32,893 nt of DNA from UHGV virus genome UHGV-1353943; one strand, 5' to 3'. A program made the translations under genes and the position numbers. The notes under the pieces are model-generated. The model searched no databases and was not told the origin of the DNA. It saw nothing but the letters and a program-made list of their open reading frames with translations. The DNA comes from a virus. Below, one piece after another: positions 6,852-23,188 of the stretch (its first letter is position 1; every line of letters begins with the position of its first letter).

Positions 6852-6857
6852 GCAAAT

Positions 6858-6902
6858 TGCTCTTTAACAGTCATGGTCCTCATTCCCGCCGAAATGCGGG
6901 AA
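6858..6902 (+). promoter_or_regulatory. nutR: nutR (boxA TGCTCTTTAACA, 13-nt spacer, boxB hairpin TCCCGCC-GAAAT-GCGGGA)
   Basis: BoxA is nearly the rrn-type consensus; boxB is identical to the nutL copy. Confidence 0.65.
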
Positions 6903-6959
6903 TACAACGCGCATAAGTTGATGCGCATAACTTCTTATTTGTTAAGGAAATACTTACAT

Positions 6960-7238
6960 ATGCAACTTACAAGTACTCGCAAGAAAGCGAATGCAATTAC
7001 AAGCAACATCCTGAATCGAATTGCTGTACGTGGTCAGCGAAAGGTTGCCGACGCGTTAGGGATTAATGAATCGCAAATTTCGCGATGGAAAGACAGCTTC
7101 ATCCCAAAAATGGGAATGCTTCTTGCTGTTCTTGAATGGGGTGTTGAAGACGAGGAGTTGGCGGAACTGGCTAAGCAAGTAGCCAGAATGCTGACAAAAG
7201 AAAAAGCCCCGAAGAACGGCGAATTCTTCGAGGCCTGA
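6960..7238 (+). CDS. cII: cII-like transcriptional activator (P22 c1 analogue)
   Basis: ORF 6873..7238; AAGGAAA RBS before ATG 6960; NESQISRWK...IPKMGMLLAVLEWGV close to lambda CII. Confidence 0.8.
   Translation: MQLTSTRKKANAITSNILNRIAVRGQRKVADALGINESQISRWKDSFIPKMGMLLAVLEWGVEDEELAELAKQVARMLTKEKAPKNGEFFEA
6993..7006 (-). promoter_or_regulatory. Candidate pRE-type cII-binding site (TTGC-N6-TTGC on minus strand)
   Basis: TTGCTTGTAATTGC read on the minus strand inside the 5' part of the cII-like gene, as at lambda pRE. Confidence 0.4.
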
Positions 7239-7272
7239 TGTAGAAAGACTGGATCAATCCACAGGAGTAATT

Positions 7273-7434
7273 ATGACAAAACGTCGTAAGAAATACCAGG
7301 AAAAAGAAGAGATTCGACACCCTGATTCACCTGAGGGATTAGTGGTAGCCGCAGCAAATAACAGGGCGTTCGCAGAGCGCCTTGTTGGTGTTTACAGACT
7401 AGCCAAAGCAGGAGTGAAACATGGGCGTCGTTAA
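7273..7434 (+). CDS. Small basic protein (53 aa), not in the ORF track
   Basis: AGGAG RBS 7 nt before ATG 7273; MTKRRKKYQEKEEIRH...; 14-nt overlap with the O-like gene start. Confidence 0.4.
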   Translation: MTKRRKKYQEKEEIRHPDSPEGLVVAAANNRAFAERLVGVYRLAKAGVKHGRR

Positions 7435-8251
7435 GTTAGCTGATTACAGGCCTCAACTGGAGGTCGTGGAGCATCGCGTGGCAGAACTCGAAGATGGCTA
7501 CACTCGGACTGCAAACACACTGTTAGAAGCCGCCATGCTTTCTGGGCTTACTCTACATCAGTTACTGATTGTTATGGCTGTGTGGCGCAAGACATACGGT
7601 TACAACAAAAAAATAGATTGGATCGGAAACGAACAGTTCGCTGAACTCACTGGCATGGCACCAACCAAATGCTCTACCGCCAAAAACGAGCTTATCAGAA
7701 TGGGAGTTCTCATTCAGGTGGGGCGTCAAGTTGGTATGAATACAAACATTTCCGAGTGGAAAACGAAAGTTAACGGATTCGGTAAAACATTTACTAATTC
7801 GGTAAAACAAAGCTTCACCAAATCGGTAAAAAGCAATTTACCGAATCAGTCAAACACAAAAGACAATATACAAAAGACAATAAATACAAATACCCCCTTA
7901 CCCCCTAACGGGGGCGGCGATGGGCAGGTTAAACCTGAACGTCGCAAGGCAGAACGAATCGACTATGAATCCTTCCTGAACGCCTACAACACCGAAGTCG
8001 GTGACAGACTGCCACACGCTGTTGCGGTCAACGAGAAACGCAAACGTCGCCTGAAGAAAATCATTCCGCAACTGAAAACGCCAAACGTGGACGGTTTCAG
8101 AGCGTATGTCAGGGCGTTTGTGCATCAGGCCAAGCCGTTTTACTTCGGAGACAACGACACGGGCTGGACGGCAGATTTTGATTACCTGCTGAGGGAAGAC
8201 TCGTTAACGGGAGTTCGGGAAGGGAAGTTTGCAGACAGGGGGATTGCATGA
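7421..8251 (+). CDS. Replication initiator (lambda O-like, iteron-binding)
   Basis: 276 aa; position between cII and the DnaB-type helicase; iteron array inside the gene; AGGAG RBS. Confidence 0.65.
7778..7900. repeat. Putative phage origin: three direct iterons (TTCGGTAAAACA x2, ATCGGTAAAAAG), one inverted copy (TTTACCGAAT), then an A-rich tract
   Basis: Repeats at 7778, 7798 and 7822 plus inverted copy at 7837, followed by AAAAGACAATATACAAAAGACAATAAATACAAATA; all inside the initiator ORF. Confidence 0.6.
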
Positions 8252-9624
8252 GACAGGATATCGAAGCGAGCGTTATCGGTGGCCTGCTGATTGGTGGATT
8301 AACTCCAACCGCCAGTGACGTTCTGGCAACGCTGGAGCCGGAAGCGTTTTCAATTCCGCTCTACCGGAAAGCCTTCGAGGTTATCCGCAAGCAGGCGAGA
8401 AACAGAAACCTAATCGACGCGCTGATGGTTGCCGAGGCGTGCGGAGAGGAGCATTTCACGTCAATCCTGATGACCAGCAAAAACTGCCCGAGCGCCGCAA
8501 ACCTGAAGGGATATGCCGGAATGGTCGCGGATAACTATCACCGCCGTCTGGTGCTGGAAATCATGGATGAAATGCGTGAACCAATTCAGAGCGGAACCAT
8601 CGATACATCGAGTCAGGCGATGGACGAGCTTGTAAAGCGTCTTTCAGCCATCAGAAAGCCCCGTGACGAGGTTAAACCTGTACGGTTAGGGGAAATCATC
8701 ACTGACTACACTGACACGCTTGACAGGCGTCTGAGGAACGGAGAAGAGTCAGATACCCTGAAGACCGGAATCGAAGAACTTGACGCCATCACCGGAGGGA
8801 TGAACGCGGAAGACCTGGTGATTATCGCTGCTCGTCCGGGTATGGGGAAAACCGAACTGGCGCTGAAGATTGCCGAAGGCGTTGCAAGCCGCGTTATTCC
8901 TGGTTCTGACGTCCGGCGCGGAGTGTTGATTTTCTCGATGGAAATGAGCGCATTGCAGATTGCAGAGCGAAGCATTGCCAACGCCGGGAGGATGTCGGTT
9001 AGCGTGCTGCGAAATCCTGCATCGATGGATGACGAAGGCTGGGCGCGTGTTGCTAACGGCATGAGTCAGCTTGCAGATTTGGATGTATGGGTAGTCGATG
9101 CCTCGCGGTTATCGGTCGAAGAAATACGCTCAATCGCAGAACGGCACAAACAGGAAAATCCAAACCTGTCACTCATCATGGCGGATTATCTTGGCCTGAT
9201 TGAGAAGCCGAAAGCAGACCGCAACGACCTCGCAATTGCTCACATCTCCGGAAGCCTGAAGGCGATGGCGAAAGACCTGAAAACACCGGTTATCTCCCTG
9301 AGTCAGCTTTCGCGCGATGTTGAGAAGCGACCAAACAAACGCCCGACAAACGCAGATTTGCGTGATTCAGGAAGCATTGAACAGGACGCAGACTCAATCA
9401 TCATGCTCTATCGGGAAGCGGTATATGACGAGAACAGTAGCGCCGCACCATTTGCTGAAATCATTGTGACAAAAAACCGTTTTGGCTCGCTTGGTACGGT
9501 TTACCAGCGGTTCTGCAACGGACACTTTGTTGCATGTGACCAGGATGAAGCCAGACAGATTTGCACAGCATCAAATGCGCCCGCTGCGCGTGGCAGACGA
9601 TATGCACAAGGGGCTGACGTATGA
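8248..9624 (+). CDS. Replicative DNA helicase, DnaB family (P22 gene 12-like)
   Basis: 458 aa; Walker A ARPGMGKT, Walker B-like [11 protein letters not shown], DnaB-type C-terminal motifs. Confidence 0.9.
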
Positions 9625-9651
9625 CCATCTACGTCACTGAGCTAATAACAG

Positions 9652-9680
9652 GCCTGCTGGTAATCGCAGGCTTTTTTATT
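9652..9680 (+). terminator. Intrinsic terminator after the replication genes (GCCTGC-TGGTAATC-GCAGGC plus TTTTTTATT)
   Basis: 6-bp GC stem and T-tract read directly. Confidence 0.6.
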
Positions 9681-9696
9681 TGGGGGAGAGTAAATC

Positions 9697-9903
9697 GTGG
9701 TTGAGTTGATTTTCTCTGCATTGAGGCTTCTCAGTGCTATGTGGATGGTGGCGACGTTCATTGTGGTTGCCAGCAGTTTTGTCCGGTTGGTAGGCGAAGG
9801 TAAAGACCTGGTGGGTGTGCTTTTCGGTAGCATTCTCCTGTGGGTGATTATCGGTGTTATGCCTGTTGTCGTAGCAAAAATGGCGTGGCGTTTTGTGAGT
9901 TGA
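9697..9903 (+). CDS. Small hydrophobic (membrane) protein, GTG start
   Basis: 68 aa, mostly hydrophobic; GGGGGAGAG RBS 6 nt before the GTG; its 3' end contains a 27-bp linker repeat. Confidence 0.4.
   Translation: MVELIFSALRLLSAMWMVATFIVVASSFVRLVGEGKDLVGVLFGSILLWVIIGVMPVVVAKMAWRFVS
9877..9903. repeat. 27-bp direct repeat, copy 1 (AAAATGGCGTGGCGTTTTGTGAGTTGA)
   Basis: Matches 10724..10750 with one mismatch; both copies lie just upstream of an RBS and ATG. Confidence 0.7.
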
Positions 9904-9920
9904 ACTGAGGGTAAGTATCG

Positions 9921-10211
9921 ATGGACGAATCAAGAAAGCAGTTTGAAGAATGGTTTAAAAACAAATATCACGTTTCAAGTGACGTGATGAAGATTATGCA
10001 CATCAAGGTCGAGATTGCATGGGAGGCATGGCAGGCATCGCGAGCAGCTATTGAACTGGATATCGACTGGCCCGAATCGAATGACAACTTTTGGAAAGAT
10101 GGTGAAGAAGGTGCTTATGCGATGGGTTATGAGGATGGGAGAGACAAAACGGTAATTGCAGTAATGAAAGCTATCAGGGCCGCAGGAATCAAAGAAAAGA
10201 ATTTCGATTAA
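9921..10211 (+). CDS. Hypothetical protein
   Basis: 96 aa ORF with GAGG RBS; inside the repeat-bounded insert. Confidence 0.5.
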   Translation: MDESRKQFEEWFKNKYHVSSDVMKIMHIKVEIAWEAWQASRAAIELDIDWPESNDNFWKDGEEGAYAMGYEDGRDKTVIAVMKAIRAAGIKEKNFD

Positions 10212-10343
10212 GCAAATATCACTTCAATAAATCGCTTTTAAGGCATCACAATCGCTCTGTAGCGATGTAAACGCGTGCAATGTATGCCGATTAGCAGCGA
10301 GAATGAAAAATGCGTCAGAATGCGTTTGAGGAGGTTTTAAGAA

Positions 10344-10559
10344 ATGAGTACGATAGCTGAACTTGTCAGGGCTAATTTTCGTGAAGAGTTGGTGCGTTGG
10401 TATCGGTATCGTTCATCGTCCAGTTTGCCGCTTGATGAGTTGTATGAGCATTCACCTGCCGCACGACGCTATCCGCGTGACCGTGTTCTTCGACGGTTGT
10501 CCAAACTCAACAATGAGTTTCAGCGCAACAGAATTATTCGGAGTCTGGATTTAAAGTAA
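10344..10559 (+). CDS. Hypothetical protein
   Basis: 71 aa ORF with strong GAGGAGG RBS; Arg-rich. Confidence 0.5.
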   Translation: MSTIAELVRANFREELVRWYRYRSSSSLPLDELYEHSPAARRYPRDRVLRRLSKLNNEFQRNRIIRSLDLK

Positions 10560-10569
10560 AGGAGTGAGT

Positions 10570-10725
10570 ATGACAAATCAGCAGCAAATAGAGTTCATCC
10601 TTGAGCAGATCCGAAAAATGCGAGAAAAGAACCAGCCAGACATGATGGAACTATGGAGACGGCAGCGGGAAGAATGGCACAGGCATATTTTTGGTGAGAG
10701 AAAATGGGATGGATGGAGCCTATAA
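10570..10725 (+). CDS. Small hypothetical protein (51 aa), not in the ORF track
   Basis: AAGGAG RBS 6 nt before the ATG; translated by hand (MTNQQQIEFILEQIRKMREK...). Confidence 0.4.
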   Translation: MTNQQQIEFILEQIRKMREKNQPDMMELWRRQREEWHRHIFGERKWDGWSL

Positions 10726-10750
10726 AATGGCGTGGCGTTTTGTTAGTTGA
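10724..10750. repeat. 27-bp direct repeat, copy 2 (AAAATGGCGTGGCGTTTTGTTAGTTGA)
   Basis: See copy 1; lies immediately upstream of ninB. Confidence 0.7.
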
Positions 10751-10757
10751 GGTGACA

Positions 10758-11168
10758 ATGAAGCAAACAATCTTCCTCCGAACTAAGCAACAACAGCAAG
10801 CTGCAATAAATGCCATCCTCGCAACACCACTCGATAAAGACAAGCCAGTCACCATCCGCATTACTGACTACAAGCGCAACCTTGACCAGAACGCAAAATT
10901 TCACGCGATGCTGGCGGATATCGCACGTCAGGTTCAATGGTGCGATAAGTGGTTAAAACCAGAACAATGGAAGGTTTTGTTGATTAGCGGTCATGCAGTG
11001 GCAACAAAGCAGGAAGCTGATGTTTTGCCCGGCCTTGAAGGCGAATACGTCAACATTCGCGAAAGTAGCGCGCAGATGAGTGTGAAGCGTATGGCAAGTC
11101 TGATTGAGTACACGACAGCATGGGCTATTGGTCAGGGCGTAAGATTTACCGACAGGAGGTACGAATGA
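10758..11168 (+). CDS. ninB: NinB-like recombination protein
   Basis: Resembles lambda NinB (SLDQN motif); GAGGTGA RBS before ATG 10758. Confidence 0.7.
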
Positions 11169-11341
11169 GACGACAGCGACGAAGTATCACCGACATCATC
11201 TGCGAAAACTGCAAATACCTTCCAACGAAACGCTCCAGAAATAAACGCAAGCAAATCCCAAAAGAATCTGACGTAAAAACCTTCAACTACACGGCTCACC
11301 TGTGGGATATCCGGTGGCTAAGACATCGCGCGAGGAAATGA
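11165..11341 (+). CDS. ninE: NinE-like small protein
   Basis: [20 protein letters not shown]... resembles lambda NinE; GGAGG RBS; ATGA overlap with ninB. Confidence 0.5.
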
Positions 11342-11691
11342 CAATGGATTATTCACAGTTAAGTGATTTTGAAATTAACAAGCGAGTATTTAAAGCGATA
11401 GTGGGGGCAATACCATTAGGTTATCCGCACAACGCAGATGGACGGTCTGTCGGCAATGAATCAAATGGTAATTATCGATGGTACGACTACTGCAATAATC
11501 CTGAAGACGCAGAGCCGATTATCGTAGAGAACAGAATTGGCATTATTCCAGCGCCAGAAAACGGATTATGGAAGGCAGCGCATAGAAAAGTTGGCAGTGA
11601 TAGTACCCCATATCATATGACTCAAGATGAAAACCCACTCCGCGCCGCCATGATTGTCTTTCTCATGATGCAGGACGCTAATAATGCTTAG
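11338..11691 (+). CDS. NinX-like (DUF2591-type) protein
   Basis: About 117 aa; order ninE-ninX-ninF as in P22-like nin regions; start chosen at ATG 11338. Confidence 0.4.
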
Positions 11692-11860
11692 CCCATCCCA
11701 ATCCCTTCAATACCAGAAAGAAAGCGTCGAGCGAGCTTTAACGTGCGCTAACTGCGGTCAGAAGCTGCATATGCTGGAAGTTCACGTGTGTGAGCACTGC
11801 TGCGCAGAACTGATGAGCGATCCGAATAGCTCAATGTACGAGGAAGAAGACGATGAATGA
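11684..11860 (+). CDS. ninF: NinF-like small Cys-rich protein
   Basis: 58 aa ([28 protein letters not shown]...CEHCC...), below the ORF-track size cut-off; matches lambda NinF as recalled. Confidence 0.6.
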   Translation: MLSPSQSLQYQKESVERALTCANCGQKLHMLEVHVCEHCCAELMSDPNSSMYEEEDDE

Positions 11861-12575
11861 GTTAATAAATGGCAATGCTATCAAAATGACAAGCATTGAA
11901 ATCGCTGAGTTGGTGGGTAAGCGTCATGACAATGTGAAACGTACCATCGAAACGCTGGCTAAAAATGGTGTTATCCGGCTTCCTCAAATTGAGGTTTCCG
12001 AAAGAATCAATAACTTAGGGTTCAATGTTCAGTACGAGCATTACGTCTTCGAAGGCGAACAAGGTAAGCGAGATAGTATTGTTGTTGTTGCCCAGTTGTC
12101 GCCAGAGTTCACCGCTCGCCTTGTTGACCGCTGGCGAGAGCTTGAAGAAGCTGCGGTTAATATCCCCAAAACGCTACCGGAAGCGTTGCGCCTTGCTGCT
12201 GATCTTGCTGAGCAGAAAATGCAGCTGGAAAACCAGCTCGCAATTGCCGCACCTAAAGTTGAGTTTGCCGATCGCGTTGGCGAGGCCAGCGGAATTTTGA
12301 TTGGAAACTTTGCAAAGGTTGTCGGTATTGGTCCAAACAAACTGTTTGCGTGGATGCGCGATCACAAAATCCTTATTGCTTCAGGTTCCCGGCGCAGTGT
12401 GCCAATGCAGGAATATATGGATCGCGGCTATTTCACAGTGAAAGAAACAGCAGTCAACACAAATCACGGAATACAGATATCGTTCACCACAAAAATCACC
12501 GGGCGTGGTCAACAGTGGCTGACCAGAAAGCTGCTCGATAACGGAATGCTGAAAGTAACAGGTGAGGCTGCTTAA
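11853..12575 (+). CDS. Phage regulatory protein, Rha-family N-terminus with antirepressor-type C-terminal domain
   Basis: 240 aa; MTSIEIAELVGKRHDNVKR is a Rha/pRha signature; C-terminal half resembles KilAC/ORF6C domains. Confidence 0.55.
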   Translation: MNELINGNAIKMTSIEIAELVGKRHDNVKRTIETLAKNGVIRLPQIEVSERINNLGFNVQYEHYVFEGEQGKRDSIVVVAQLSPEFTARLVDRWRELEEAAVNIPKTLPEALRLAADLAEQKMQLENQLAIAAPKVEFADRVGEASGILIGNFAKVVGIGPNKLFAWMRDHKILIASGSRRSVPMQEYMDRGYFTVKETAVNTNHGIQISFTTKITGRGQQWLTRKLLDNGMLKVTGEAA

Positions 12576-12865
12576 TGGCTAATCTACGCAAAGAAGCACG
12601 CGGCAGAGAATGCCAGGTACGTATTTACGGCGTATGCAATGGCAATCCTGAAACTACAGTTCTGGCACATTACCGGATGGCTGGAATTTGCGGAACGGGA
12701 ATGAAGCCTGACGACCTGATCGGTGCATGGGCTTGTAGTGCGTGTCACGATGAAATCGACCGACGCACCCATAATCTCGACAACAAAGACGCCAGACTTT
12801 ACCACCTCGAAGGCGTGATCAGAACGCAGGCGATACTGCTGAGGGAGGGGAAGATTAAGTCATGA
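12575..12865 (+). CDS. YbcO-like protein (DUF1364, putative nuclease)
   Basis: 96 aa; CQVRIYGVCNGNPETTVLAH...CSACHDEIDRR resembles the DLP12 YbcO family. Confidence 0.55.
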   Translation: MANLRKEARGRECQVRIYGVCNGNPETTVLAHYRMAGICGTGMKPDDLIGAWACSACHDEIDRRTHNLDNKDARLYHLEGVIRTQAILLREGKIKS

Positions 12866-13224
12866 ACGAATATCAGTTTGTGCTTCCATACCCGCCGTCG
12901 GTGAATACCTACTGGCGAAGACGGGGAAGCCAATATTACATAAGCGATAAAGGCCAGAAATACCGAAAAGACGTTCAGCAAATCATCCGCCAACTCAAGT
13001 TAGACATTTTCACCAAATCACGACTCCGTATCAAAGTCATCGCAGACGTTCCAGACTCCCGCCGCCGCGACCTCGACAACATCCTGAAAGGTTTACTCGA
13101 CTCCCTTATCCACGCCGGATTTGCGGAAGACGACGAGCAATTCGATGACATTCGCGTAATTCGTGGTGTGAAAGTACCAGGCGGACGGCTTGGAATAAAA
13201 ATTACCGAACTGGAGAACGCATGA
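12862..13224 (+). CDS. rusA: Holliday junction resolvase RusA
   Basis: 120 aa; PPSVNTYW...RRRDLDNILKGLLDSL...GGRLGIKITE matches RusA signatures. Confidence 0.8.
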   Translation: MNEYQFVLPYPPSVNTYWRRRGSQYYISDKGQKYRKDVQQIIRQLKLDIFTKSRLRIKVIADVPDSRRRDLDNILKGLLDSLIHAGFAEDDEQFDDIRVIRGVKVPGGRLGIKITELENA

Positions 13225-13409
13225 ACGCCACAATTCAAACGATACCAGAGCTTCTTATCCAGACACGAGGCAATCAGACCGAAGTGGCAAGGATGCTTTC
13301 CTGCGCAAGAGGAACAGTGCTCAAGTACAACCGAGACAGCAAAGGCGAGCGTCACGTAATAGTTAACGGCGTCCTGATGGTCAAACAGGGCAAGAGGGGA
13401 AGACGATGA
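13221..13409 (+). CDS. ninH: NinH-like protein
   Basis: 62 aa; TIPELLIQTRGNQTEVARMLSCARGTVLKY resembles lambda NinH. Confidence 0.6.
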   Translation: MNATIQTIPELLIQTRGNQTEVARMLSCARGTVLKYNRDSKGERHVIVNGVLMVKQGKRGRR

Positions 13410-14029
13410 GACTCGAAAGCGTAGCTAAATTTCATTCGCCAAAAAGCCCGATGATGAGCGACTCACCACGGGCTACGGCTTCTGACTCTCTTTCCGGTAC
13501 TGATGTGATGGCTGCTATGGGGATGGCGCAATCACAAGCCGGATTCGGAATGGCTGCATTCTGCGGTAAGCATGAACTCAGCCAGAACGACAAACAAAAG
13601 GCTATCAACTATCTGATGCAATTTGCACACAAGGTATCGGGGAAATACCGTGGTGTGGCAAAGCTTGAAGGAAATACTAAGGCAAAGGTACTGCAAGTTC
13701 TCGCAACATTCGCTTATGCGGATTATTGCCGTAGTGCCGCGACGCCGGGCGCAAGATGCAGAGATTGCCACGGTACAGGCCGTGCGGTTGATATAGCAAA
13801 AACAGAGCAGTGGGGGAGAGTTGTTGAGAAAGAGTGCGGAAGATGCAAAGGCGTAGGCTATTCCAGGATGCCAGCAAGCGCCGCATATCGCGCTGTAACG
13901 ATGCTAATCCCAAACCTTACCCAACCCACCTGGTCACGAACTGTTAAGCCGCTGTATGACGCTCTGGTGGTGCAATGCCACAAAGAAGAGTCAATCGCAG
14001 ACAACATTTTGAATGCGGTCACACGTTAG
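13406..14029 (+). CDS. Q: Late antiterminator Q (lambda type)
   Basis: 207 aa; sequence, length and position before pR' match lambda Q as recalled; zinc-binding Cys cluster present. Confidence 0.85.
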   Translation: MRLESVAKFHSPKSPMMSDSPRATASDSLSGTDVMAAMGMAQSQAGFGMAAFCGKHELSQNDKQKAINYLMQFAHKVSGKYRGVAKLEGNTKAKVLQVLATFAYADYCRSAATPGARCRDCHGTGRAVDIAKTEQWGRVVEKECGRCKGVGYSRMPASAAYRAVTMLIPNLTQPTWSRTVKPLYDALVVQCHKEESIADNILNAVTR

Positions 14030-14071
14030 CAGCATGATTGCCACGGATGGCAACATATTAACGGCATAATA

Positions 14072-14100
14072 TTGACTTTTTGAATAAAGTTGGGTAAATT
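14072..14100 (+). promoter_or_regulatory. Late promoter pR' (-35 TTGACT, 17-bp spacer, -10 TAAATT), overlapping the qut region
   Basis: Hexamers read directly; surrounding sequence is lambda-like. Confidence 0.7.
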
Positions 14101-14240
14101 TGACCAAACAATGGGTCAATTCGCTCGTTGTGGTAGTGAGGTAAAAAGAGGCGGCGCTTACTACCGATTCTGCCTAGTTGGTCACTTCGACGTATCGTCT
14201 GGAACTCCAACCATAGCAGGCTGAGAGGTCTGCAAAATGC

Positions 14241-14302
14241 AATCCCGAAACAGTTCGCAGGTAATAGTTAGAGCCTGCACAACGGTTTCGGGATTTTTTA
14301 TT
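14241..14302 (+). terminator. tR' terminator (long hairpin AATCCCGAAAC...GTTTCGGGATT plus TTTTTTAT); ends the short pR' (6S-type) transcript
   Basis: Extended inverted repeat and T-tract read directly; lambda-like. Confidence 0.75.
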
Positions 14303-14303
14303 T

Positions 14304-14378
14304 GGGTCAGTCGTATAAAGGTCATTACGGAAGGCTGTTAACCTTCTTATCGTGGTTCGAGTCCACGCTGTCCCGCCA
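14304..14378 (+). tRNA. tRNA-Asn-like (anticodon GTT), non-canonical D-arm
   Basis: Hand-folded: acceptor GGGTCAG/CTGTCCC (one T-T mismatch), anticodon stem GAAGG/CCTTC with loop CTGTTAA, T-arm CGTGG-TTCGAGT-CCACG, encoded CCA; D-stem only 3 bp. Confidence 0.5.
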
Positions 14379-14383
14379 AACAT

Positions 14384-14459
14384 GCTGGTTTAGCTCCAAT
14401 GGTAGAGCGGTCGCCTTGTAAGCGAATGGGTAGCGGTTCAAGTCCGTTAACCAGCACCA
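14384..14459 (+). tRNA. tRNA-Thr (anticodon TGT)
   Basis: Hand-folded 76-nt cloverleaf: acceptor GCTGGTT/AACCAGC, D-arm GCTC-CAATGGTA-GAGC, anticodon loop CTTGTAA, T-arm AGCGG-TTCAAGT-CCGTT, encoded CCA. Confidence 0.7.
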
Positions 14460-14701
14460 TAACTGAGCCGTAGCCACTGGCTGTCCTGAATTCATCAGTG
14501 ATAGTTACGCTGCGGCCTTCTACGCATGACCTTCGTGAAAGCGGGTGGCAAGAAGTTGCGCTAACAACCTCCTGCCGTTTTGCCCGTGCATATCGGTCAC
14601 GAACAAATCTGATTACTAAACACAGTAGCCTGGATTTGTTCTATCAGTAATCGACCTTATTCCTAATTAAATAGAGCAAATCCCCTTATTGGGGGTAAGA
14701 C

Positions 14702-15025
14702 ATGAAGATGCCAGAAAAACATGACCTGTTAGCCGCCATTCTAGCGGCAAAGGAACAAGGCATCGGGGCAATCCTTGCGTTTGCAATGGCGTACCTTCGC
14801 GGCAGATATAATGGCGGTGCGTTTACAAAAACAGTAATCGACGCAACGATGTGCGCCATTATCGCCTGGTTCATTCGTGATCTTCTCGACCTCGCCGGAC
14901 TAAGTAGCAATCTCGCTTATATAACGAGCGTGTTCATCGGCTACATCGGTACTGACTCGATTGGTTCGCTTATCAAACGCTTCGCTGCTAAAAAAGCCGG
15001 AGTAGAAGATGGTGGGAATCAATAA
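14702..15025 (+). CDS. S: Holin S (lambda class I; dual-start antiholin/holin MKM motif)
   Basis: 107 aa, near-identical to lambda S as recalled ([20 protein letters not shown]...). Confidence 0.9.
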
Positions 15026-15485
15026 TCAACGTAAGGCGTTCCTCGATATGCTGGCATGGTCAGAGGGAACTGATAACGGACGTCAGAAAACCAGAAATCA
15101 TGGTTATGACGTCATTGTAGGCGGAGAGCTATTCACTGATTACTCCGATCACCCTCGCAAACTTGTCACGCTAAACCCCAAACTCAAATCAACAGCCGCC
15201 GGACGCTACCAACTTCTTTCCCGTTGGTGGGATGCCTATCGTAAGCAGCTTGGCCTGAAAGACTTCTCTCCGAAAAGCCAGGACGCTGTGGCATTGCAGC
15301 AGATTAAAGAGCGTGGCGCTTTACCAATGATTGATCGCGGCGATATTCGTCAGGCAATCGACCGTTGCAGCAATATCTGGGCTTCACTGCCGGGCGCTGG
15401 TTATGGCCAGTTCGAGCATAAGGCTGACAGCCTGATTGCAAAATTCAAAGAAGCTGGCGGAACAGTCAGAGAGATTGAGGTATGA
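15009..15485 (+). CDS. R: Endolysin R (lytic transglycosylase, lambda type)
   Basis: 158 aa, near-identical to lambda R as recalled; overlaps the S 3' end. Confidence 0.9.
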
Positions 15486-15919
15486 GCAGAGTAACCGCGA
15501 TTATCTCCGCTCTGGTTATCTGCATCATCGTCTGTCTGTCATGGGCTGTTAATCATTACCGTGATAACGCCATTACCTATAAAGAACAGCGCGATAAAGC
15601 AACGTACATCATCGCTGACATGCAGAAGCGTCAACGTGATGTAGCAGAACTTGACGCCAGATACACAAAGGAGCTTGCTGATGCTAACGCGACTATCGAA
15701 AGTCTCCGTGCTGATGTTTCTGCTGGTCGTAAGCGCCTGCAAGTCTCCGCCACCTGTGCAAAGTCAACGACCGGAGCCAGCAGCATGGGCGATGGAGAAA
15801 GCCCAAGACTTACAGCAGATGCTGAACTCAATTATTACCGTCTCCGAAGTGGAATCGACAAGATAACCGCGCAGGTTAACTACCTGCAGGAATACATCAG
15901 GACGCAATGCCTGAAATAA
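15482..15919 (+). CDS. Rz: Spanin, inner-membrane subunit Rz
   Basis: 145 aa; N-terminal TM ([21 protein letters not shown]) as in lambda Rz; central part diverges. Confidence 0.8.
15681..15866 (+). CDS. Rz1: Spanin, outer-membrane lipoprotein Rz1 (embedded in Rz, +1 frame)
   Basis: 61 aa from ATG 15681 with AAGGAG RBS; lipobox LVVSAC, Pro-rich; nested in Rz. Confidence 0.7.
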
Positions 15920-15950
15920 TTTTTTTGCAAATCACAAAGTCCATTTAATG

Positions 15951-15976
15951 AGCCTCGCGATGCGGGGCTTTTTTTA
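15951..15976 (+). terminator. Intrinsic terminator after the lysis cassette (AGCCTCGC-GAT-GCGGGGCT plus T7)
   Basis: 8-bp stem and seven T read directly. Confidence 0.65.
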
Positions 15977-16124
15977 CATCTGAATTTCACAGCGCATCTC
16001 ACGCGCATATTACATCACCCGAGCCTTTCAGAAAGTTGAGCCTGAGAACTGCCGTATATGGTGGCGACCATCTCGGGGCGGCTTTTCTGTGAGACAGGCT
16101 CACTTTCTAAAAGGTAAAGACGCT

Positions 16125-16622
16125 ATGAAAGCAATCACGCTTTTTAATACACCGATCCGTGTTGATGAATCAGGAATGATCTGCCTCACTGATATGTGGA
16201 AAGCCAGTGGTAAAAGTGAATCTGAATCTCCGTACCACTACCTGCGAAACAAGCAGACCAAAGAGTTCTTAGCCGAGCTGGAGAAAAACCACGAATCTGT
16301 GGTTTTTACTGAGCGCGGTGTACACGGTGGAACATATGGCGGGAAGTTTGTTGCTTACGATTATGCGGCTTGGTTAAACCCCGGGTTCAAGTACGCGGCC
16401 TATAAAGTCCTCGATGACTACTTCACCGGAGAACTTCAGCATCGCAACAGCTTAAGTGCGCAGCTCAACATGAAATGTCATGAGTTTGACCAGAAGAAAG
16501 ACATGGCGAGCTTCTGCGGACAAGGGCTGGCAGCATGGCGCTATACGAAGCCAGTGTTGGTCGCTGAGATTAACTCCCTGGCTAACCAGCTGCAGATTAC
16601 GATCCCCGGGCTTCCGGGATGA
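16125..16622 (+). CDS. KilA-N domain protein; accessory gene
   Basis: ORF 16089..16622; AAAGGTAAAG RBS before ATG 16125; KilA-N-like N-terminus ending in YAAWLNPGF. Confidence 0.55.
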   Translation: MKAITLFNTPIRVDESGMICLTDMWKASGKSESESPYHYLRNKQTKEFLAELEKNHESVVFTERGVHGGTYGGKFVAYDYAAWLNPGFKYAAYKVLDDYFTGELQHRNSLSAQLNMKCHEFDQKKDMASFCGQGLAAWRYTKPVLVAEINSLANQLQITIPGLPG

Positions 16623-16888
16623 GTGATCGTGTTATTGAATGCGCCTCCAGAGCGGGGCGCGACTTCTCAGAGTTCATGAAAGGCGAGAAGGGCATGATGG
16701 AAGCATTGGCCTCGGTGGATGAGTTTGGCGAGCAGCTGCGCCTCAACGGCTGTGTCAATCATCACTTTGTTAGCTACATGATGCGGAACTCGATCATGCA
16801 GGCATTCATGGACATGGCAAAAGCCGAGAGGAAAGAAGAGCGCCGGCGTAAGCGAGCGGAAGCAAAAGCAAAAGCAAAAGTGAAGTAG
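16619..16888 (+). CDS. Hypothetical protein with K/R/E-rich C-terminal helix
   Basis: 89 aa; ATGA overlap with the KilA-N gene; C-terminus AKAERKEERRRKRAEAKAKAKVK. Confidence 0.45.
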   Translation: MSDRVIECASRAGRDFSEFMKGEKGMMEALASVDEFGEQLRLNGCVNHHFVSYMMRNSIMQAFMDMAKAERKEERRRKRAEAKAKAKVK

Positions 16889-17136
16889 GCATTACAAAGC
16901 CCATTTACGGGTGGGCTTGATAATGAAACCGGAATTTATTCTGGGCCACCAGTTAACGGCAGTACCACGAAACAACCCAAGCCAGTAAGTGGGGAAATAA
17001 CACTGGCAGCCACTGAAAGATGAACCTCCTGCCTTATGGCAAAAAAGATTCTTTGTGGTGGCGGACTGATGGAAAGACATCGGTTATTGCAGAGGCCATT
17101 CAATGAGTGGTCTCGACAATGGCTTATACCCTACAC

Positions 17137-17165
17137 GGGATAACTTAACTGATATCCCTTTTAAC
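17137..17165 (+). promoter_or_regulatory. Inverted repeat GGGATA-N10-TATCCC followed by TTTTAA, just upstream of the HNH gene RBS
   Basis: Read directly; function unknown (attenuator or protein-binding site). Confidence 0.35.
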
Positions 17166-17183
17166 GGATAAACGGAGCCAACA

Positions 17184-17681
17184 ATGGCAAAGCTCGCAGA
17201 CAAACAAGAGCTGTTTTCCCATCCGGATGATGTGTATGTCGGAGAGTGTGTGATTTATACCGGCTACATAAATAAGCGAGGGTATGGGCAGAAGCACATT
17301 TCACGAAAGCCGCACTACGCACATCGAATCGCATACTGCGAAGCTAACGGAATTTCGCTAGATAGCATCAAGGACCTGGTTGTTAGGCATAAATGCGATA
17401 ATCCATCATGCGTGAATCCTGACCATCTGATTATAGGTACTGTCGCTGACAATAATCGTGACAGGTCAAGGCGAGGCAGAAACTCATACCCTGACCGTTC
17501 AGGTGAAAAGAACGGAATGGCGAAATTAAAAGAGTGCGATGTCATCTGCATTCGCCGCGAGTATGTGCGCGGGAGTGTAGGTAATGGGCTTAGGTCTTTA
17601 GCAAAGAGATATGGCGTATCCACTACCATGATTGCTGACATCGTTAATCATAGAAATTGGAGCAATGTTTCGGAGGTGTGA
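17184..17681 (+). CDS. HNH endonuclease (packaging-associated)
   Basis: 165 aa; H..R..Y, RHKCDNPSCVNPDHL and GT..DN motifs typical of HNH; directly upstream of the terminase genes; ACGGAG RBS. Confidence 0.75.
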   Translation: MAKLADKQELFSHPDDVYVGECVIYTGYINKRGYGQKHISRKPHYAHRIAYCEANGISLDSIKDLVVRHKCDNPSCVNPDHLIIGTVADNNRDRSRRGRNSYPDRSGEKNGMAKLKECDVICIRREYVRGSVGNGLRSLAKRYGVSTTMIADIVNHRNWSNVSEV

Positions 17682-18237
17682 TTTGAAACAGCTCACACCT
17701 AAGCAGGAACTGTTCTGCAGGGAATATTTAAAAGATTTAAACGCCACTCAGGCAGCTATCAGGGCGGGTTACAGCGAGAAAACTGCTCGCGCCACTGGTA
17801 GCGAGAACCTGTCAAAACCTGACATAGCAGATCGCATTGCTGAGCTAAAGGCTGAACGCAATGAAGAGGTAGGTATAGACGCTGCCTATGTATTGCGACG
17901 GCTGACTGAAATCGATCAGATGGACGTGCTTGACATTCTGCTTGCCAATGGCGAACTGAAGCCGATTAAAGACTGGCCTAAGGTGTGGCGTACAACGCTA
18001 TCAGGAATGGATGTCGTCGAGATGGTATCCGCAGATAGCGCCGCACTTCTGAAGAAAATCAAATGGCCTGATAAGGTTAAAAACCTTGAGTTGCTCGGGC
18101 GTCATGTTTCTGTTCAGGCGTTTAAAGACAATGTCAAAAATGAAGTGACTGGTGCTGACGGAGGACCAGTCAGAACAGAAATTACCAACTTAACGCCGGA
18201 GCAGGCTGCAGAAGCGTATAAAAAAATGATGGGCTAA
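17665..18237 (+). CDS. Terminase small subunit
   Basis: [28 protein letters not shown] is typical of terminase small subunits; start ambiguous (ATG 17665, or TTG 17683 behind a GGAGGTG RBS). Confidence 0.7.
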
Positions 18238-18239
18238 GT

Positions 18240-19862
18240 ATGCCGTTACCATTTCCCTTCGATTTTAAACATCCTGATTACCAGATGGTTTTTGAATGGC
18301 GGATGGAACGCCTACAGCGCATTCGCCAGAACCCTGAAATATTGCCCGTATTGAAGCAGTTTTACCGAACCAATCCGGCTCAGTTCATCATCGACTGGGG
18401 CATGACAACGGACCCGCGTAATATTGATTATGGCCTGCCGGTGACCATTCCGTTTTTACTCTTCCCTAAGCAGGAGGAGTGGATCCACTGGATTATGGAA
18501 CGCTGGGGCAATCGGGAGAATGGTATTACCGAAAAATCCCGTGAAATGGGGCTCAGTTGGACCGCGATCGGACTGGCCTGCTCGCTTTGTCTCTTCAACA
18601 AAGAAATGGTTATCGGTTTCGGCTCCCGTAAAGAGGAATACGTCGACAGCACCGGTGACCCGAAAGCATTGTTCTGGAAGGCACGCAAGTTCGTGGAAAC
18701 GCTACCTGTAGAGTTTCGCGGTTCGTGGAGCGAGAAGAAGCACGCGCCATATATGCGTGTTGAGTTTCCCGATACTGGCGCGGTCATCAAAGGCGAGGCT
18801 GGCGATAATATTGGTCGTGGTGACCGTACCACGCTTTATCTGGTTGATGAGGCTGCATTCCTTCAGCGTCCTCTGCTGATTGATGCGGCGTTGTCACAAA
18901 CGACGCGTTGCCGTATCGACCTGAGTTCAGTTAACGGCATGGCTAACCCGTTCGCTCAGAAGCGTCATGGCGGGAAGATACCGGTATTCACATTCCACTG
19001 GCGGGATGATCCTCGCAAGGATGAAGAGTGGTATCGCAGGGAATGCGAGAAAATCGATAATCCGGTGGTGGTGGCACAGGAACTTGATCTGAACTACAGC
19101 GCATCAGCGGAAGGCGTCCTGATTCCATCCGAATGGGTACAGGCTGCTGTCGACGCGCATATCAAGCTGGGCATCCAGCCAACAGGCAAGCGACTGGGCG
19201 CGATGGACGTCGCCGACGAAGGCAGGGACAAAAATTCCTTTTCCACCCGTCATGGCTTCCTCCTGGAGAATGTGCGGGAATGGTCCGGTGTGGGCAGCGA
19301 CATTTATCAGTCCGTCGAGAAGGTTTTCGGCTTTTGCGAACAGGACAACCTCGAAGAGTTTCGCTTTGACGAGGACGGGCTGGGCGCTGGCGTTCGCGGC
19401 GATGCACGCGCTATCAACGAACTGCGTAACGCTGCGCGTCGACCGTCAATACTTGCCACACCGTTTCGAGGTAGTGGCGCGGTATTTGATCCGGATGATG
19501 AAGCTGTTCGCGGGGACAACGGGCAAGCCGCACGTCTGAACAAGGACTTCTTCGCTAACGCCAAAGCCCAGAGCTGGTGGCGGTTACGTAAACTTTTCCA
19601 GAACACCTGGCGTGCCGTGGTTGAAGGTATGGCTTACAACCCGGACGAAATCATCTCAATCAGCAGTAGCATGGCACTCAAAGATAAACTCATCATCGAG
19701 CTTTCGCAGCCGACCTATTCCATTAATGGTGTGGGAAAAATCGTTATTGATAAACAGCCTGATGGAACCCGGTCGCCAAACCTTGCCGACTCGGTGATGA
19801 TCAGCTACGCGCCAATGAATTCAGCCCTGAACATCTGGGAGCTGCTAGGGAGACAGGCCTGA
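18240..19862 (+). CDS. Terminase large subunit (ATPase plus nuclease)
   Basis: 540 aa; Walker B-like [11 protein letters not shown]; size and position; stop overlaps the portal start (ATGA). Confidence 0.85.
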
Positions 19863-21328
19863 TGGCACGAAACAAGCAAGCCCTGCGAAGAACTGCGCAG
19901 GCCACAGCTGATGGTTATGAGAATTTTATTGCCCGCGTGGGGATGCAGACGCCTAACCAGCACTCAGCATCGACCTACCGGGCGAACTTCACCAGCCGCA
20001 ACCGCATGCTGGTGGAATGGTCATATCGCGGATCGTGGGTTATCGGCGAAGCGGTCGACGCTATCCCGGATGATATGACCCGCAAAGGCATTCGCATCAC
20101 TTCGGAAATTGATGCAAAAGATCGCGGCATTCTCGAATCACAACTGGATGAGTTGCAAATCTGGGATGCGCTGAACGACGTGCTGAAATGGTCGCGCCTC
20201 TACGGCGGCGCGGTCGGCTTCATCATGATCGAGGGGCAGGCACCAATGACCCCGCTGCGGCTCGAAACCATTGGAGAAGGCAAGTTTAAGGGCATTCTCC
20301 CGCTCGACCGCTGGATGATTAACCCGGTCCTGACCCGCCGCATTAAAGAGATGGGGCCAGATCTCGGCAAACCTGAGTTTTACGACGTGGTGACCACTGC
20401 AACGGGCATCCCGGCCTGGCGCATCCATCACAGCCGCCTGATTCGCTTCGATGGCGTCACGCTGCCATTCCAGCAGAAGATGACCGAAAACGAATGGGGA
20501 ATGTCGGTTGTAGAGCGTATCTGGGATCGGCTTACTGCGTTCGACAGCGCCACTGTCGGCGCGGCGCAGCTGGTCTACAAAGCGCATTTGCGTACCTACA
20601 GCGTGGAGAAGCTACGCGAGCTTATCGCACTTGGTGGTCCTGCGTATGAAGCGCTGCTGAAGAACATCGACCTGATCCGCCAGTTCCAGAGCAATGAAGG
20701 CATGACGCTCATGGACTCGCGGGATAAGTTCGAAACCCACCAGTACAGCTTCAGCGGTCTGGATGACATTCTTTCGCAGTTCGCTGAGCAGATCAGCGGT
20801 GCCGTTGGTATCCCGCTGGTGCGACTGTTCGGTCAATCCCCGAAAGGCTTCTCTACTGGTGACGCAGACCTCGCCAACTATTACGACCGGGTGAGCTCAT
20901 TGCAGGAACGCCGCTTACGGATGCCGATGCGTCGGATACTGGACATCATGCATCGTTCGGAGCTTGGCAAGCCGCTGCCGGACGATTTCACGTTTGAGTT
21001 TAACCCGCTATGGCAAATGTCTGACGTTGACCGCTCAACGGTGGCCGTAAACACTACCAACGCAATCAGTACGGCGCTGGGTGATGGTCTGATGACACTG
21101 AAAGCCGCTATGACTGATTTGCGCGAAAATTCTGACGTAACCGGCATCGGGGCGTCCATTACCGACGAGGACATAGAGAATGCCGAAGACGAAGCGCCGC
21201 CAGGCATCGGCGAACTTGGCGACAAACCGCCAGAGTCGCCAGGCGGAGATCCGATATCGAACGAGCCTACGGCAGATAGCGCGGGCGGTCGGGGATATCG
21301 TAAATGGTCGCTACGATGGTTCAAATGA
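19862..21328 (+). CDS. Portal protein
   Basis: 488 aa directly after TerL; size and order are characteristic. Confidence 0.7.
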   Translation: MARNKQALRRTAQATADGYENFIARVGMQTPNQHSASTYRANFTSRNRMLVEWSYRGSWVIGEAVDAIPDDMTRKGIRITSEIDAKDRGILESQLDELQIWDALNDVLKWSRLYGGAVGFIMIEGQAPMTPLRLETIGEGKFKGILPLDRWMINPVLTRRIKEMGPDLGKPEFYDVVTTATGIPAWRIHHSRLIRFDGVTLPFQQKMTENEWGMSVVERIWDRLTAFDSATVGAAQLVYKAHLRTYSVEKLRELIALGGPAYEALLKNIDLIRQFQSNEGMTLMDSRDKFETHQYSFSGLDDILSQFAEQISGAVGIPLVRLFGQSPKGFSTGDADLANYYDRVSSLQERRLRMPMRRILDIMHRSELGKPLPDDFTFEFNPLWQMSDVDRSTVAVNTTNAISTALGDGLMTLKAAMTDLRENSDVTGIGASITDEDIENAEDEAPPGIGELGDKPPESPGGDPISNEPTADSAGGRGYRKWSLRWFK

Positions 21329-21953
21329 CAGTGTCACCGAAATAATGGATGCGCTGGAGCGCTACAGCGAAATCATCACCCCCTGGGCGACGAAGGTTGC
21401 TGAGAACTTTACCGCCGACATTGCACGCCAGAATGAAAAGCAGTGGCGTCAGCACAGCCGGAACATCAGTGCAGAGCTGCGCAACATGGTCGACCGCGCC
21501 CCGGTAGGCCAGGTGATGAAATCCATCGTCGCCGAGCAAATTAAGTACATCAAGTCACTGCCTCTTGAGGCCGCCGATCGGGTGTATGACATTCAGAACA
21601 AGGCCATCGAGGCCGTTGTGTCTGGTGGCCGCGCTGAACCATTCGCGAAAGAGATAGCAGCGTCCGGTGACGTGTCACGCTCACGAGCGAACCTTATCGC
21701 CCGTACCGAGCTTGGACGTGCAACCGGCGCGCTGGATCAGGCGCGTGCGCTGTCAATCGGCTCGAATGGTTATATCTGGCGTACAGCCGAAGATGGCGAC
21801 GTCCGGCATTCTCATCGGGAGATGGAAGGTAAGTTTGTCGAATGGGGCAAACCTCCAACGCTTGATGGCATGACCGGTCACGCTGGCGAGCTCCCGAATT
21901 GTCGCTGTTATAAAGAAATCGTTTTTCCCAACCCTCATTCTTATCTCGCCTGA
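21180..21953 (+). CDS. Head morphogenesis protein (Mu F / SPP1 gp7-like)
   Basis: 257 aa; RTELGRA...DGDVRHSHREMEGKF resembles Phage_Mu_F; GAGGA RBS before ATG 21180; overlaps the portal 3' end by 149 nt in another frame. Confidence 0.65.
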   Translation: MPKTKRRQASANLATNRQSRQAEIRYRTSLRQIARAVGDIVNGRYDGSNDSVTEIMDALERYSEIITPWATKVAENFTADIARQNEKQWRQHSRNISAELRNMVDRAPVGQVMKSIVAEQIKYIKSLPLEAADRVYDIQNKAIEAVVSGGRAEPFAKEIAASGDVSRSRANLIARTELGRATGALDQARALSIGSNGYIWRTAEDGDVRHSHREMEGKFVEWGKPPTLDGMTGHAGELPNCRCYKEIVFPNPHSYLA

Positions 21954-21967
21954 ATCGCAGGTAAACC

Positions 21968-23188
21968 ATGAAATATTTTTTCAATACCCGGCTGGGGGAA
22001 ACCCGCTATCAGCTGGCTGACGGCTCGCTGCTGTGCAAAGACGTGCCGATAGGTCGAACGGGTAAGCAGCTCTACGTCGCTGCCGATCTGCCAAACCTCA
22101 AACCCGACAAGCTCGGTGAGATAGTCGTAACGCGTTCTCCTGAGCAGGTATTCCATCCGGCCACGCTCGCCTCATTCGAAGGGATGAGCATCACGATCCT
22201 GCATCCTGAAGATGAAAACGGGAATGTGCGGCTGGTAAATCCCGAGAACTGGAAAGAGCTTGCGGTCGGGCACCTCCAGAATGTCCGGCGCGGGACGGGT
22301 GAGCAGTCTGATTTGATGCTGGCTGACCTTATCGTCAAAGACGAAAACGCCATTCAGCTTATCGAAGATGGCCTGCGTGAAGTGTCGTGCGGCTATGACG
22401 CGGAGTACGAGCAGACCGAGCCAGGTAAAGCCGAGCAGGTCGATATTACCGGAAACCATGTGGCTCTTGTCCCCAAAGGCAGAGCCGGAAATCGTTGTGC
22501 AATTGGAGACAGAGACACAATGGCAAATCAAAAGAAAAACTGGTGGAACCGCATGCGTGCAGCCATCAAGACAGGAGATGCCGACACCATGAACGAACTG
22601 GTGGAGTCGGCTCCCGCATCGGTTACAGGAGATGAGGGGGATTTGCCGCAGGGCGTTAATCTCAACATCAACCTGTCCCCGCAGCAACCACTACCGGACA
22701 AAGCACCAGAGATGGGTGGAGGTCCAACCGGCGACAGTGATGATGACCTCAAAACATTACTGAAAGCCCTGCTGGCTAAGCTGGAAGGAAATGCGACGGG
22801 CGATAACGACAATAAGCCTGACGATAATCCGACCGGTGACGGCGAGGACGATGAAGAGGAAACCACGATTACTGGTGACTCAGCCTGGCGTGCCGAAGTT
22901 ATCGTTCCGGGTATCGATCTGAGCCGTAAGATGAAACCGACCGCGTTCAAACGCGAGGTTCTGGCTTCCGCAGATAAAACGCTGGTTCGCCAGATAGTCG
23001 GTGATGCGGATATCCGCAAATTACCGAAACAATCGGTCAACATGGCGTTTAATGCCGTGTCTGAGATTGCCAAAGGGCGAAACACCCGCGCCACCACCGG
23101 CGATGCACAGCGCCCAAACATGGGCATGACCAGCATCGCTTCCCTGAACAAACAAAACGCCGAATTCTGGTCTAACCGCAAAGGATAA
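21968..23188 (+). CDS. Putative prohead protease/scaffold-like protein (DUF2213-like N-terminus, acidic low-complexity middle)
   Basis: 406 aa between the F-like and capsid genes; central D/E/G-rich region like scaffolding proteins. Confidence 0.45.
   Translation: MKYFFNTRLGETRYQLADGSLLCKDVPIGRTGKQLYVAADLPNLKPDKLGEIVVTRSPEQVFHPATLASFEGMSITILHPEDENGNVRLVNPENWKELAVGHLQNVRRGTGEQSDLMLADLIVKDENAIQLIEDGLREVSCGYDAEYEQTEPGKAEQVDITGNHVALVPKGRAGNRCAIGDRDTMANQKKNWWNRMRAAIKTGDADTMNELVESAPASVTGDEGDLPQGVNLNINLSPQQPLPDKAPEMGGGPTGDSDDDLKTLLKALLAKLEGNATGDNDNKPDDNPTGDGEDDEEETTITGDSAWRAEVIVPGIDLSRKMKPTAFKREVLASADKTLVRQIVGDADIRKLPKQSVNMAFNAVSEIAKGRNTRATTGDAQRPNMGMTSIASLNKQNAEFWSNRKG

Follow-up and report, generated by a model that had tools for sequence, protein, structure and literature searches.

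Introduction

A pair of transfer RNA (tRNA) genes, for asparagine with anticodon GUU and for threonine with anticodon UGU, has long been known from the late operons of lambdoid and P22-like phages. The genome paper of phage SfI describes both tRNAs downstream of the antiterminator gene Q, cites Sf6, ST64T, PS3 and phage 21 in this connection, and credits the cassette to a 1991 study of phage 21 (PMC3636060). Asn-GTT and Thr-TGT genes are likewise marked in P22-like prophages in the epsilon34 paper (PMC2629481), and the tRNA locus is discussed in the phage L paper (PMC8022706). Here we analyse the same pair in the virus genome UHGV-1353943, a stretch of 32,893 nucleotides that is referred to at its full length as the window. 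Neither the tRNA-Asn/tRNA-Thr gene pair, which existing records annotate, nor the function of its Thr tRNA, published from 2025 on, is new; the cassette has been described for years, the GenBank record of Sf6 annotates it, and as a discovery it adds nothing.

The published function concerns P2 Old, the effector of classical P2-lambda interference, which kills the cell by cutting off the anticodon arm of the host's tRNA-Thr(UGU) (Govande et al., NAR 2025, PMC12445682). Cleavage follows the C in each of the paired CNG motifs, at 28-30 and at 40-42 (PMC12445682). The tRNA-Thr of phage 21 (tRNA-Thr21), whose anticodon stem is shorter and whose pairs are altered close to both cleavage sites, C28U/G42A included, is not cleaved in vitro and shields cells against the toxicity of Old+Gam; in a different phage allele, tRNA-Thr6, mutagenesis traced resistance to a shortened stem together with an altered CNG motif (PMC12445682). 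Expressed from a plasmid, the tRNA-Thr of phage HK446 gives near wild-type plating of the Old-sensitive phages HK97, HK542 and Bas34, and Gly(UCC) is also among the preferred Old targets (bioRxiv 10.64898/2026.07.10.737580). AriB, the effector of PARIS, attacks the host tRNAs Lys(UUU) and Thr(UGU) and, secondarily, Asn(GUU) (Belukhina et al., PMC12409363). It cuts between positions 40 and 41 in the motif U36AAUC/N41, and substitution of U39 abolishes cleavage, a determinant that was defined on tRNA-Lys only (PMC12409363). Variants of the Lys, Thr and Asn tRNAs from phage T5 together neutralise PARIS, and all three are needed for full rescue (PMC12409363).

Two tRNA genes behind the late terminator

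ARAGORN calls exactly two tRNA genes in the window, both on the plus strand, namely tRNA-Asn with anticodon GUU at 14304-14378 and tRNA-Thr with anticodon UGU at 14384-14459, each with an encoded CCA and separated by the 5-nucleotide spacer AACAT (14379-14383, +). Against the Rfam tRNA model RF00005, which has a gathering score of 29, tRNA-Asn scores 55.3 bits (E 1.7e-9) and tRNA-Thr 61.2 bits (E 4.2e-11), in both cases over the full model (positions 1-71); both scores are far above chance. The first-pass annotation, whose interval of 14241-14460 covers the terminator tR' and both tRNAs, had proposed just such a pair with this spacing and with CCA ends, and both programs bear it out.

The loops of both tRNAs are regular. 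The anticodon loops comprise 7 nucleotides with U33 and A37 (CTGTTAA in tRNA-Asn, CTTGTAA in tRNA-Thr), the T-loops are canonical (TTCGAGT and TTCAAGT, respectively), and the D-loops, AAAGGTCA and CAATGGTA, both contain G18G19. Deviations are found in the stems, where the Rfam alignment places three Watson-Crick pairs and a U13.U22 mismatch in the D-arm of tRNA-Asn and a U4.U69 mismatch in its acceptor stem, and flags a 27/43 mismatch in the anticodon stem of tRNA-Thr; the variable loop of tRNA-Asn has 4 nucleotides. A weak D-arm in tRNA-Asn had been noticed from the letters alone and is real, although mild with its one mismatch; the accompanying suggestion that the gene might be degenerate does not hold, because it is 100% identical in phage 21, HK446, BTP1, phage L, mEp506 and others. 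In Escherichia coli, asparaginyl-tRNA synthetase recognises G34-U35-U36 and G73, and threonyl-tRNA synthetase recognises G1-C72, C2-G71, G35 and U36. The cognate elements are all present in the two sequences of the window, and the discriminators, G73 in tRNA-Asn and A73 in tRNA-Thr, are the same as in host asnT and thrU. Taken together, these features indicate that the window most likely encodes two functional phage tRNAs, and rescue with the phage 21 and HK446 alleles would imply, by analogy, that they function in vivo.

The pair is embedded in a late control region of lambda type. Upstream lies a lambda-type Q antiterminator gene of 207 amino acids (13406-14029, +), an open reading frame (ORF) that matches, by megablast, genes of lambda, HK446 and Kapi1 with the annotation Q or antitermination protein. 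The late promoter pR', TTGACT-17-TAAATT (14072-14100, +), is the only sigma-70-like site in 13900-14800 and aligns with lambda pR'; the equivalent site in HK446 is annotated 'similar to coliphage lambda PR''. The terminator tR' (14242-14303, +), which marks the end of a 6S-like leader, was recognised by RNA folding and consists of a long hairpin followed by TTTTTTATTT (14294-14303), with about 95% identity to lambda up to 14301. Its hairpin (about 14242-14294) has a predicted energy of -28.3 kcal/mol (z = -5.1), and none of 200 shuffled sequences folds as well; a simple terminator scan missed it because of the long loop, and folding confirmed it. The T6 run after the hairpin occupies 14294-14299, and tRNA-Asn starts immediately after TTTTTTATTT, 4 nucleotides past the T6 run, so that its proposed placement directly behind tR' stands and the proposed distance of 2 nucleotides from the T-tract does not. 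A promoter scan of 13900-14800 found no promoter of the tRNAs' own between pR' and S. An ORF of 69 amino acids on the minus strand (14174-14383), which runs across tR' and tRNA-Asn, is almost certainly spurious. Downstream, a lambda-type leader (14461-14701, +; 96.8% identity to lambda over 14461-14710) precedes the holin/antiholin gene S (14702-15025, +; an ORF of 107 amino acids), the first late gene downstream, whose homologues in lambda, Sf6 and Kapi1 are annotated as S or holin.

Alignment of the window with lambda (J02459), Sf6 and Kapi1 delimits a mosaic block of 159 bp (14302-14460, +), which replaces 163 bp of lambda (44782-44944) at 36% identity, the chance level for a forced alignment. 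On its left, window 14030-14301 corresponds to lambda 44510-44781 at about 95% identity, and on its right 14461-14710 corresponds to lambda 44945-45194 at 96.8%; the left joint falls inside the terminator T-tract. Two earlier claims are thereby upheld, that pR', the tR' hairpin and the S-side flank are lambda-like (95-97% identity) and that the segment between tR' and the S leader has been replaced. The replacement starts within a stretch equivalent to the lambda hypothetical orf-64 (lambda 44621-44815). The possibility that the lambda spacer is a relic of the cassette was considered and rejected, since the blocks are 36% identical and lambda 44180-45484 shows no tRNA trace even at a permissive Rfam threshold of E<=10, the only match being a chance one to a snoRNA.

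Anticodon stems compared with the host

Both tRNAs of the window retain the anticodon loops of their host counterparts (CUGUUAA and CUUGUAA), and the anticodon stems below these loops are different. In tRNA-Thr the stem reads GUCGC/GCGAA, against ACUGA/UCAGU in the host, which gives a G27.A43 mismatch followed by U28-A42, C29-G41, G30-C40 and C31-G39 in place of the host pairs A-U, C-G, U-A, G-C and A-U. CNG is absent on either strand, at 28-30 as well as at 40-42, the stem is one pair shorter than that of the host, and U39 has become G. This arm (27-43) is identical to that of the phage 21 allele, and the sole difference of the whole tRNA-Thr from the alleles of phage 21 and HK446 is A26G, which lies outside the anticodon arm. 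The tRNA-Thr of the window combines a UGU anticodon, altered CNG motifs and a shortened anticodon stem, the features by which resistance to Old has been defined (PMC12445682). In tRNA-Asn, the stem GAAGG/CCUUC stands against GCGGA/UCCGU in the host; neither CNG motif remains, and C has taken the place of U39. The AriB site, U36-A-A-U39-C40/N41, reads UAAGCG in tRNA-Thr and UAACCU in tRNA-Asn, U39 being replaced in both.

These changes predict that the tRNA-Asn of the window would resist both Old and AriB. More generally, a combination of preserved decoding parts with rewritten nuclease-contact parts is what a replacement tRNA would be predicted to show, and not what simple dosage supplementation would predict. 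A recent capture of the genes from the host was also considered and rejected, as tRNA-Asn is identical to E. coli asnT in 44 of 76 aligned columns and the stems of tRNA-Thr differ widely from those of thrU and thrT.

Early region and a homologue of the reported Old trigger

The early region of the window encodes a homologue of HK446 Gp33 (4062-4229, -; 94.6% identity over 56 amino acids by tblastn), and Gp33 is reported to be a trigger of P2 Old (bioRxiv 10.64898/2026.07.10.737580). It belongs with an HK446-like recombination locus in the early-left operon (2661-3999, -) that comprises Erf (99.5% identity), a homologue of the SSB-like gp31 (96%) and Abc2 (2661-2957, -; 96.9% identity to HK446). 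With its Gp33 homologue, the phage is very likely to trigger Old. HK446 also encodes the anti-Old protein Oad2 (gp27), of which tblastn found no homologue in the window at E<=1e-3; a pairwise BLASTP of Oad2 against the ORF that occupies the equivalent slot returned E = 1.7. By sequence comparison, the tRNA cassette is thus the sole element of the window that appears to match a reported anti-Old factor. The prophage therefore offers a natural genotype, with a Gp33 Old trigger, a tRNA-Thr of the resistant type and no Oad2 homologue, that suits asking whether a native, Q-dependent cassette escapes P2 Old, and equally whether tRNA-Asn contributes against Old or PARIS.

The ORFs in the equivalent slot include one for a 215-amino-acid protein with an NYN domain (PIN-like RNase; 1293-1940, -; Pfam E 9.3e-12), which belongs to PHROG 5783, of unknown function. 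It is located between a xis-like gene and the recombination genes, roughly at the position of Oad2 in HK446, and is unrelated to Oad2. The early region as a whole matches Kapi1, HK97 and HK446. The virion genes (15000-32893) match those of vB_EcoM-689R2-type phages and of Salmonella phage SEN34 (tail sheath, baseplate), and not those of lambda or HK97. Taken together, the two regions make the window a lambdoid prophage of strongly mosaic composition whose tail module is of the myovirus type.

A probable supply of replacement tRNAs and alternative explanations

We consider it probable that the cassette provides a Q-dependent supply of nuclease-resistant replacement tRNAs, with support for ACA decoding as a compatible side benefit. 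Without a promoter of their own, the two genes would depend for transcription on pR' and on read-through of tR' by RNA polymerase that Q has modified, and host tRNA-processing enzymes would then cut the tRNAs out of the late transcript. P2 Old kills cells infected by a lambdoid phage chiefly through the loss of tRNA-Thr(UGU), the single host decoder of ACA, and the main benefit of the cassette would be the provision of replacements that escape such Toprim tRNases of rival mobile elements. The phage tRNAs appear suited to this task in that host loops and synthetase identity are kept while the anticodon stems seem to have been rewritten without the features that the nucleases recognise. If the phage tRNAs escape the nucleases, late-protein synthesis could therefore continue. 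Extra capacity for ACA, which is commoner in the phage than in E. coli, would be a secondary benefit. The presence of tRNAs for the GUU and UGU anticodons in other temperate coliphages (P1, JLK-2012) supports the replacement of cleaved host tRNAs as the main role. A role in counter-defence had already been suggested in the first-pass annotation, and it has experimental support for Thr alleles that differ from that of the window only at position 26 (PMC12445682; 10.64898/2026.07.10.737580).

Several points weigh against this explanation. The HK446 tRNA-Thr alone neither rescued lambda nor relieved Old toxicity in recB-deficient cells, and the authors of that work suggest that the HK446 tRNA may be an adaptation to temperate life, as HK446 also has Oad2 (bioRxiv 10.64898/2026.07.10.737580). 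The rescue data all derive from plasmid-expressed tRNA and not from the native late-operon cassette (PMC12445682; 10.64898/2026.07.10.737580), and the phage L paper leaves the excision of the tRNAs from the late mRNA as an open question (PMC8022706). Timing is a further difficulty, given that the tRNAs would be made only after Q has acted, yet the Q gene has 4 ACA codons of its own and ACA is more frequent in the early genes than in the late ones. The resistance of tRNA-Asn to Old or AriB is a prediction from its letters, and the Old resistance of the G26 tRNA-Thr would be carried over from the A26 alleles. Furthermore, ARAGORN found no tRNA-Lys(UUU) in the 32,893 bp of the window, which leaves the set incomplete against PARIS. 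Any benefit against PARIS, with tRNA-Lys missing, and the sufficiency of the cassette in its native position are inferences.

An explanation by codon supplementation alone, in which the tRNAs only raise decoding capacity and no nuclease is involved, has to be weighed against the supply of replacements. It would hold that a single low-abundance host tRNA reads ACA and that Asn codons are served too. Among the 50 ORFs of the window, ACA makes up 12.7 per 1000 codons (24% of Thr codons), compared with about 7 per 1000 in E. coli K-12, and Asn codons make up 48.5 per 1000. E. coli, however, has four tRNA-Asn genes, which counts against a need for another, and a convincing bias in the Asn codons is lacking. 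The distribution of ACA along the window also speaks against supplementation, since the early genes (window 1-14029), whose translation precedes the synthesis of the tRNAs, have more of the codon (15-16 per 1000, 32-34% of Thr codons) than the late genes have (14702-32893; 10.7 per 1000, 18.5% of Thr codons). In SfI, ACA similarly reaches 17.3 per 1000 in the phage against 7.1 in the host, but the authors saw no bias in Asn codons (PMC3636060); in the coat gene of phage L, AAC is used for 24 of 25 Asn codons (PMC8022706). Supplementation further leaves unexplained why, with conserved loops, the changes in both stems fall exactly on the determinants of Old and AriB, and overexpressed host tRNA-Thr(UGU) gives little or no protection, unlike the protective phage alleles (PMC12445682; 10.64898/2026.07.10.737580). 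Codon compensation, which had been put forward at first reading together with counter-defence, is plausible for ACA and weak for Asn; as the whole explanation of the cassette we regard it as unlikely.

Two further explanations seem to us very improbable, each to a similar degree. One of them, raised for HK446 in the 2026 preprint (10.64898/2026.07.10.737580), is that the cassette compensates for a host tRNA gene disrupted by integration; in its favour, the HK446 attP resembles thrW. The cassette, however, encodes Thr(UGU) and not the CGU anticodon of thrW, encodes an Asn tRNA as well, and lies behind a Q-controlled terminator, where little expression would be expected in a lysogen, when compensation would be needed. 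Near-identical cassettes are moreover found in phages with unrelated attachment sites, such as phage 21 and Sf6, which presumably integrate in icd and argW, respectively. P22-like prophages that carry the cassette likewise have various sites (PMC2629481), and integration into a tRNA gene normally rebuilds that gene, as for phage L and thrW (PMC8022706). The other is a role apart from decoding, in which the tRNA-like structures would act mainly as RNase P/E processing sites, freeing the late mRNA of its 6S-like leader and influencing its 5' end and stability, or in which tRNA-Asn would be a decaying pseudogene. The U4.U69 and U13.U22 mismatches and the 4-nucleotide variable loop of tRNA-Asn could be read in this way, and the second tRNA gene of phage L, which is aberrant with an anticodon loop shorter by 4 nucleotides, shows that decay does occur at this locus. 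Against this stand the scores of both genes well over the Rfam threshold, their canonical loops, identity elements and encoded CCA, and the invariance of tRNA-Asn in dozens of E. coli, Shigella and Salmonella phages. A UGU anticodon was also required for rescue by tRNA-Thr6, which is not a lambdoid allele (PMC12445682).

The replacement of nuclease-cleaved host tRNAs can also be put in a stronger form, which we offer tentatively and hold to be somewhat doubtful as a whole. According to this proposal, the pairing of Asn(GUU) with Thr(UGU) would be no accident of codon usage and would serve lambdoid and P22-like phages as a dedicated defence against the Toprim tRNases Old and PARIS of P2- and P4-family elements, tRNA-Asn would be nuclease-resistant as well, and the cassette alone would decide growth on P2 lysogens in phages that have Gp33 and lack Oad2. 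Its placement behind tR' would limit expression to the lytic phase, where it would protect the synthesis of late proteins.

Comparison with related cassettes

A 170-bp cassette 98.8-99.4% identical to that of the window occurs in phage 21, Sf6, SfI, BTP1, HK446, Kapi1, mEp506, phiv205-1 and many Salmonella P22-like phages, and in 369 of 5,426 complete E. coli genomes, where it is annotated by PGAP. Most of the phage records annotate the pair as tRNA-Asn and tRNA-Thr (phage 21, Sf6, SfI, BTP1, Kapi1, mEp506). The whole interval of 701 bp from the end of Q to the start of S is 97.4-97.9% identical in phiv205-1, Kapi1, HK446 and mEp506, and the exact combination of flanks and cassette is therefore already in GenBank. 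The pair is present and unannotated in HK446 (NC_019714 / JQ086372), phiv205-1, HF4s, SEN22 and several Salmonella phage records; in HK446, ARAGORN recovers both genes at 15098-15253 of the record. That several public records (HK446, phiv205-1, Salmonella phages) lack the tRNA annotation is a useful outcome of the comparison.

Lambda, the classic Old-sensitive phage, is 95-97% identical to the window in Q, pR', the 6S leader, tR' and the S leader, and it has 163 unrelated bases in place of the 159-bp cassette. HK446 shares the Gp33-Erf-gp31-Abc2 locus with the window at about 95-99.5% and differs in having A26 in tRNA-Thr, T in the spacer (AATAT in HK446 and Kapi1, AACAT in the window), Oad2 (gp27) and different virion genes. 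In phage 21 (OL657228, 39591-39746), gene order, 5-nucleotide spacing and position right after tR' are as in the window, whereas its own Q21, pR' and short tR' lie upstream and the S21 pinholin downstream, and homology to the window stops about 62 bp past the CCA of tRNA-Thr. Sf6 and the P22-like phages (BTP1, SPN9CC, ST64T / phage L variants) have tRNA-Asn and tRNA-Thr between tR' and a lambda-type holin and match the window at 97-98% over about 14291-14700, with a Q21-like antiterminator and its terminator upstream. The S leader travels with the cassette in phages of the Sf6 type, as Sf6, HF4s and vB_SosS_Oslo match the window from about 14291 on.

Some P22-like relatives have only the Asn gene, or the Asn gene with an aberrant second one, as in phage L. 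The second gene of phage L is annotated as tRNA-Leu(TAA) (781-852), aligns with the Thr gene, has the anticodon loop shorter by 4 nucleotides and is not called by ARAGORN; it resembles a derivative of the Thr slot that is aberrant or in decay. In the E. coli E2348/69 prophage, which like SfI and the window is mosaic with a myovirus-type tail module, the cassette is 100% identical. Identity of the window with this prophage was rejected, because the latter has a different Q and an ORF for an HNH endonuclease between Q and the tRNAs (17442-17954). The cassette is accordingly found behind a lambda-type Q (window, HK446), a 21-type antiterminator (Sf6, phage 21) and a further type with the HNH ORF (E2348/69), and it precedes differing holins; it therefore behaves as an independently exchanged module.

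Shiga toxin (Stx) phages of the 933W type also place tRNA genes close to Q, where the late operon starts; these are of the species Ile and Arg, for rare codons. These tRNAs did not turn up among the matches of the homology search with the cassette and are unrelated to it in sequence as far as compared. For a tRNA gene close to the stx2 operon, the SfI authors refer to Schmidt et al. 1997 (PMC3636060). The nuclease-resistant tRNAs of T5, T4 and BASEL phages and the tandem pair of P1 share the GUU and UGU anticodons with those of the window, at an identity of about 80% (P1 Thr) or less. P1 carries Asn(GUU) and Thr(UGU) in tandem (1123-1276), near tciA/tciB and downstream of annotated C1-controlled ban promoters, not of a Q-controlled terminator; its tRNA-Thr, about 80% identical to that of the window, keeps the CUG/CAG motif, and its tRNA-Asn keeps U39-C40-A41. 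In JLK-2012, Asn(GUU), a Thr(UGU)-like gene and Gly(UCC) lie directly after Q (1421-1654) and are followed by tciA/tciB; the Thr(UGU)-like gene has only three anticodon-stem pairs and is not called by ARAGORN. The arrangements in P1 and JLK-2012 suggest exchange between the tRNA modules of P1-type and lambdoid phages.

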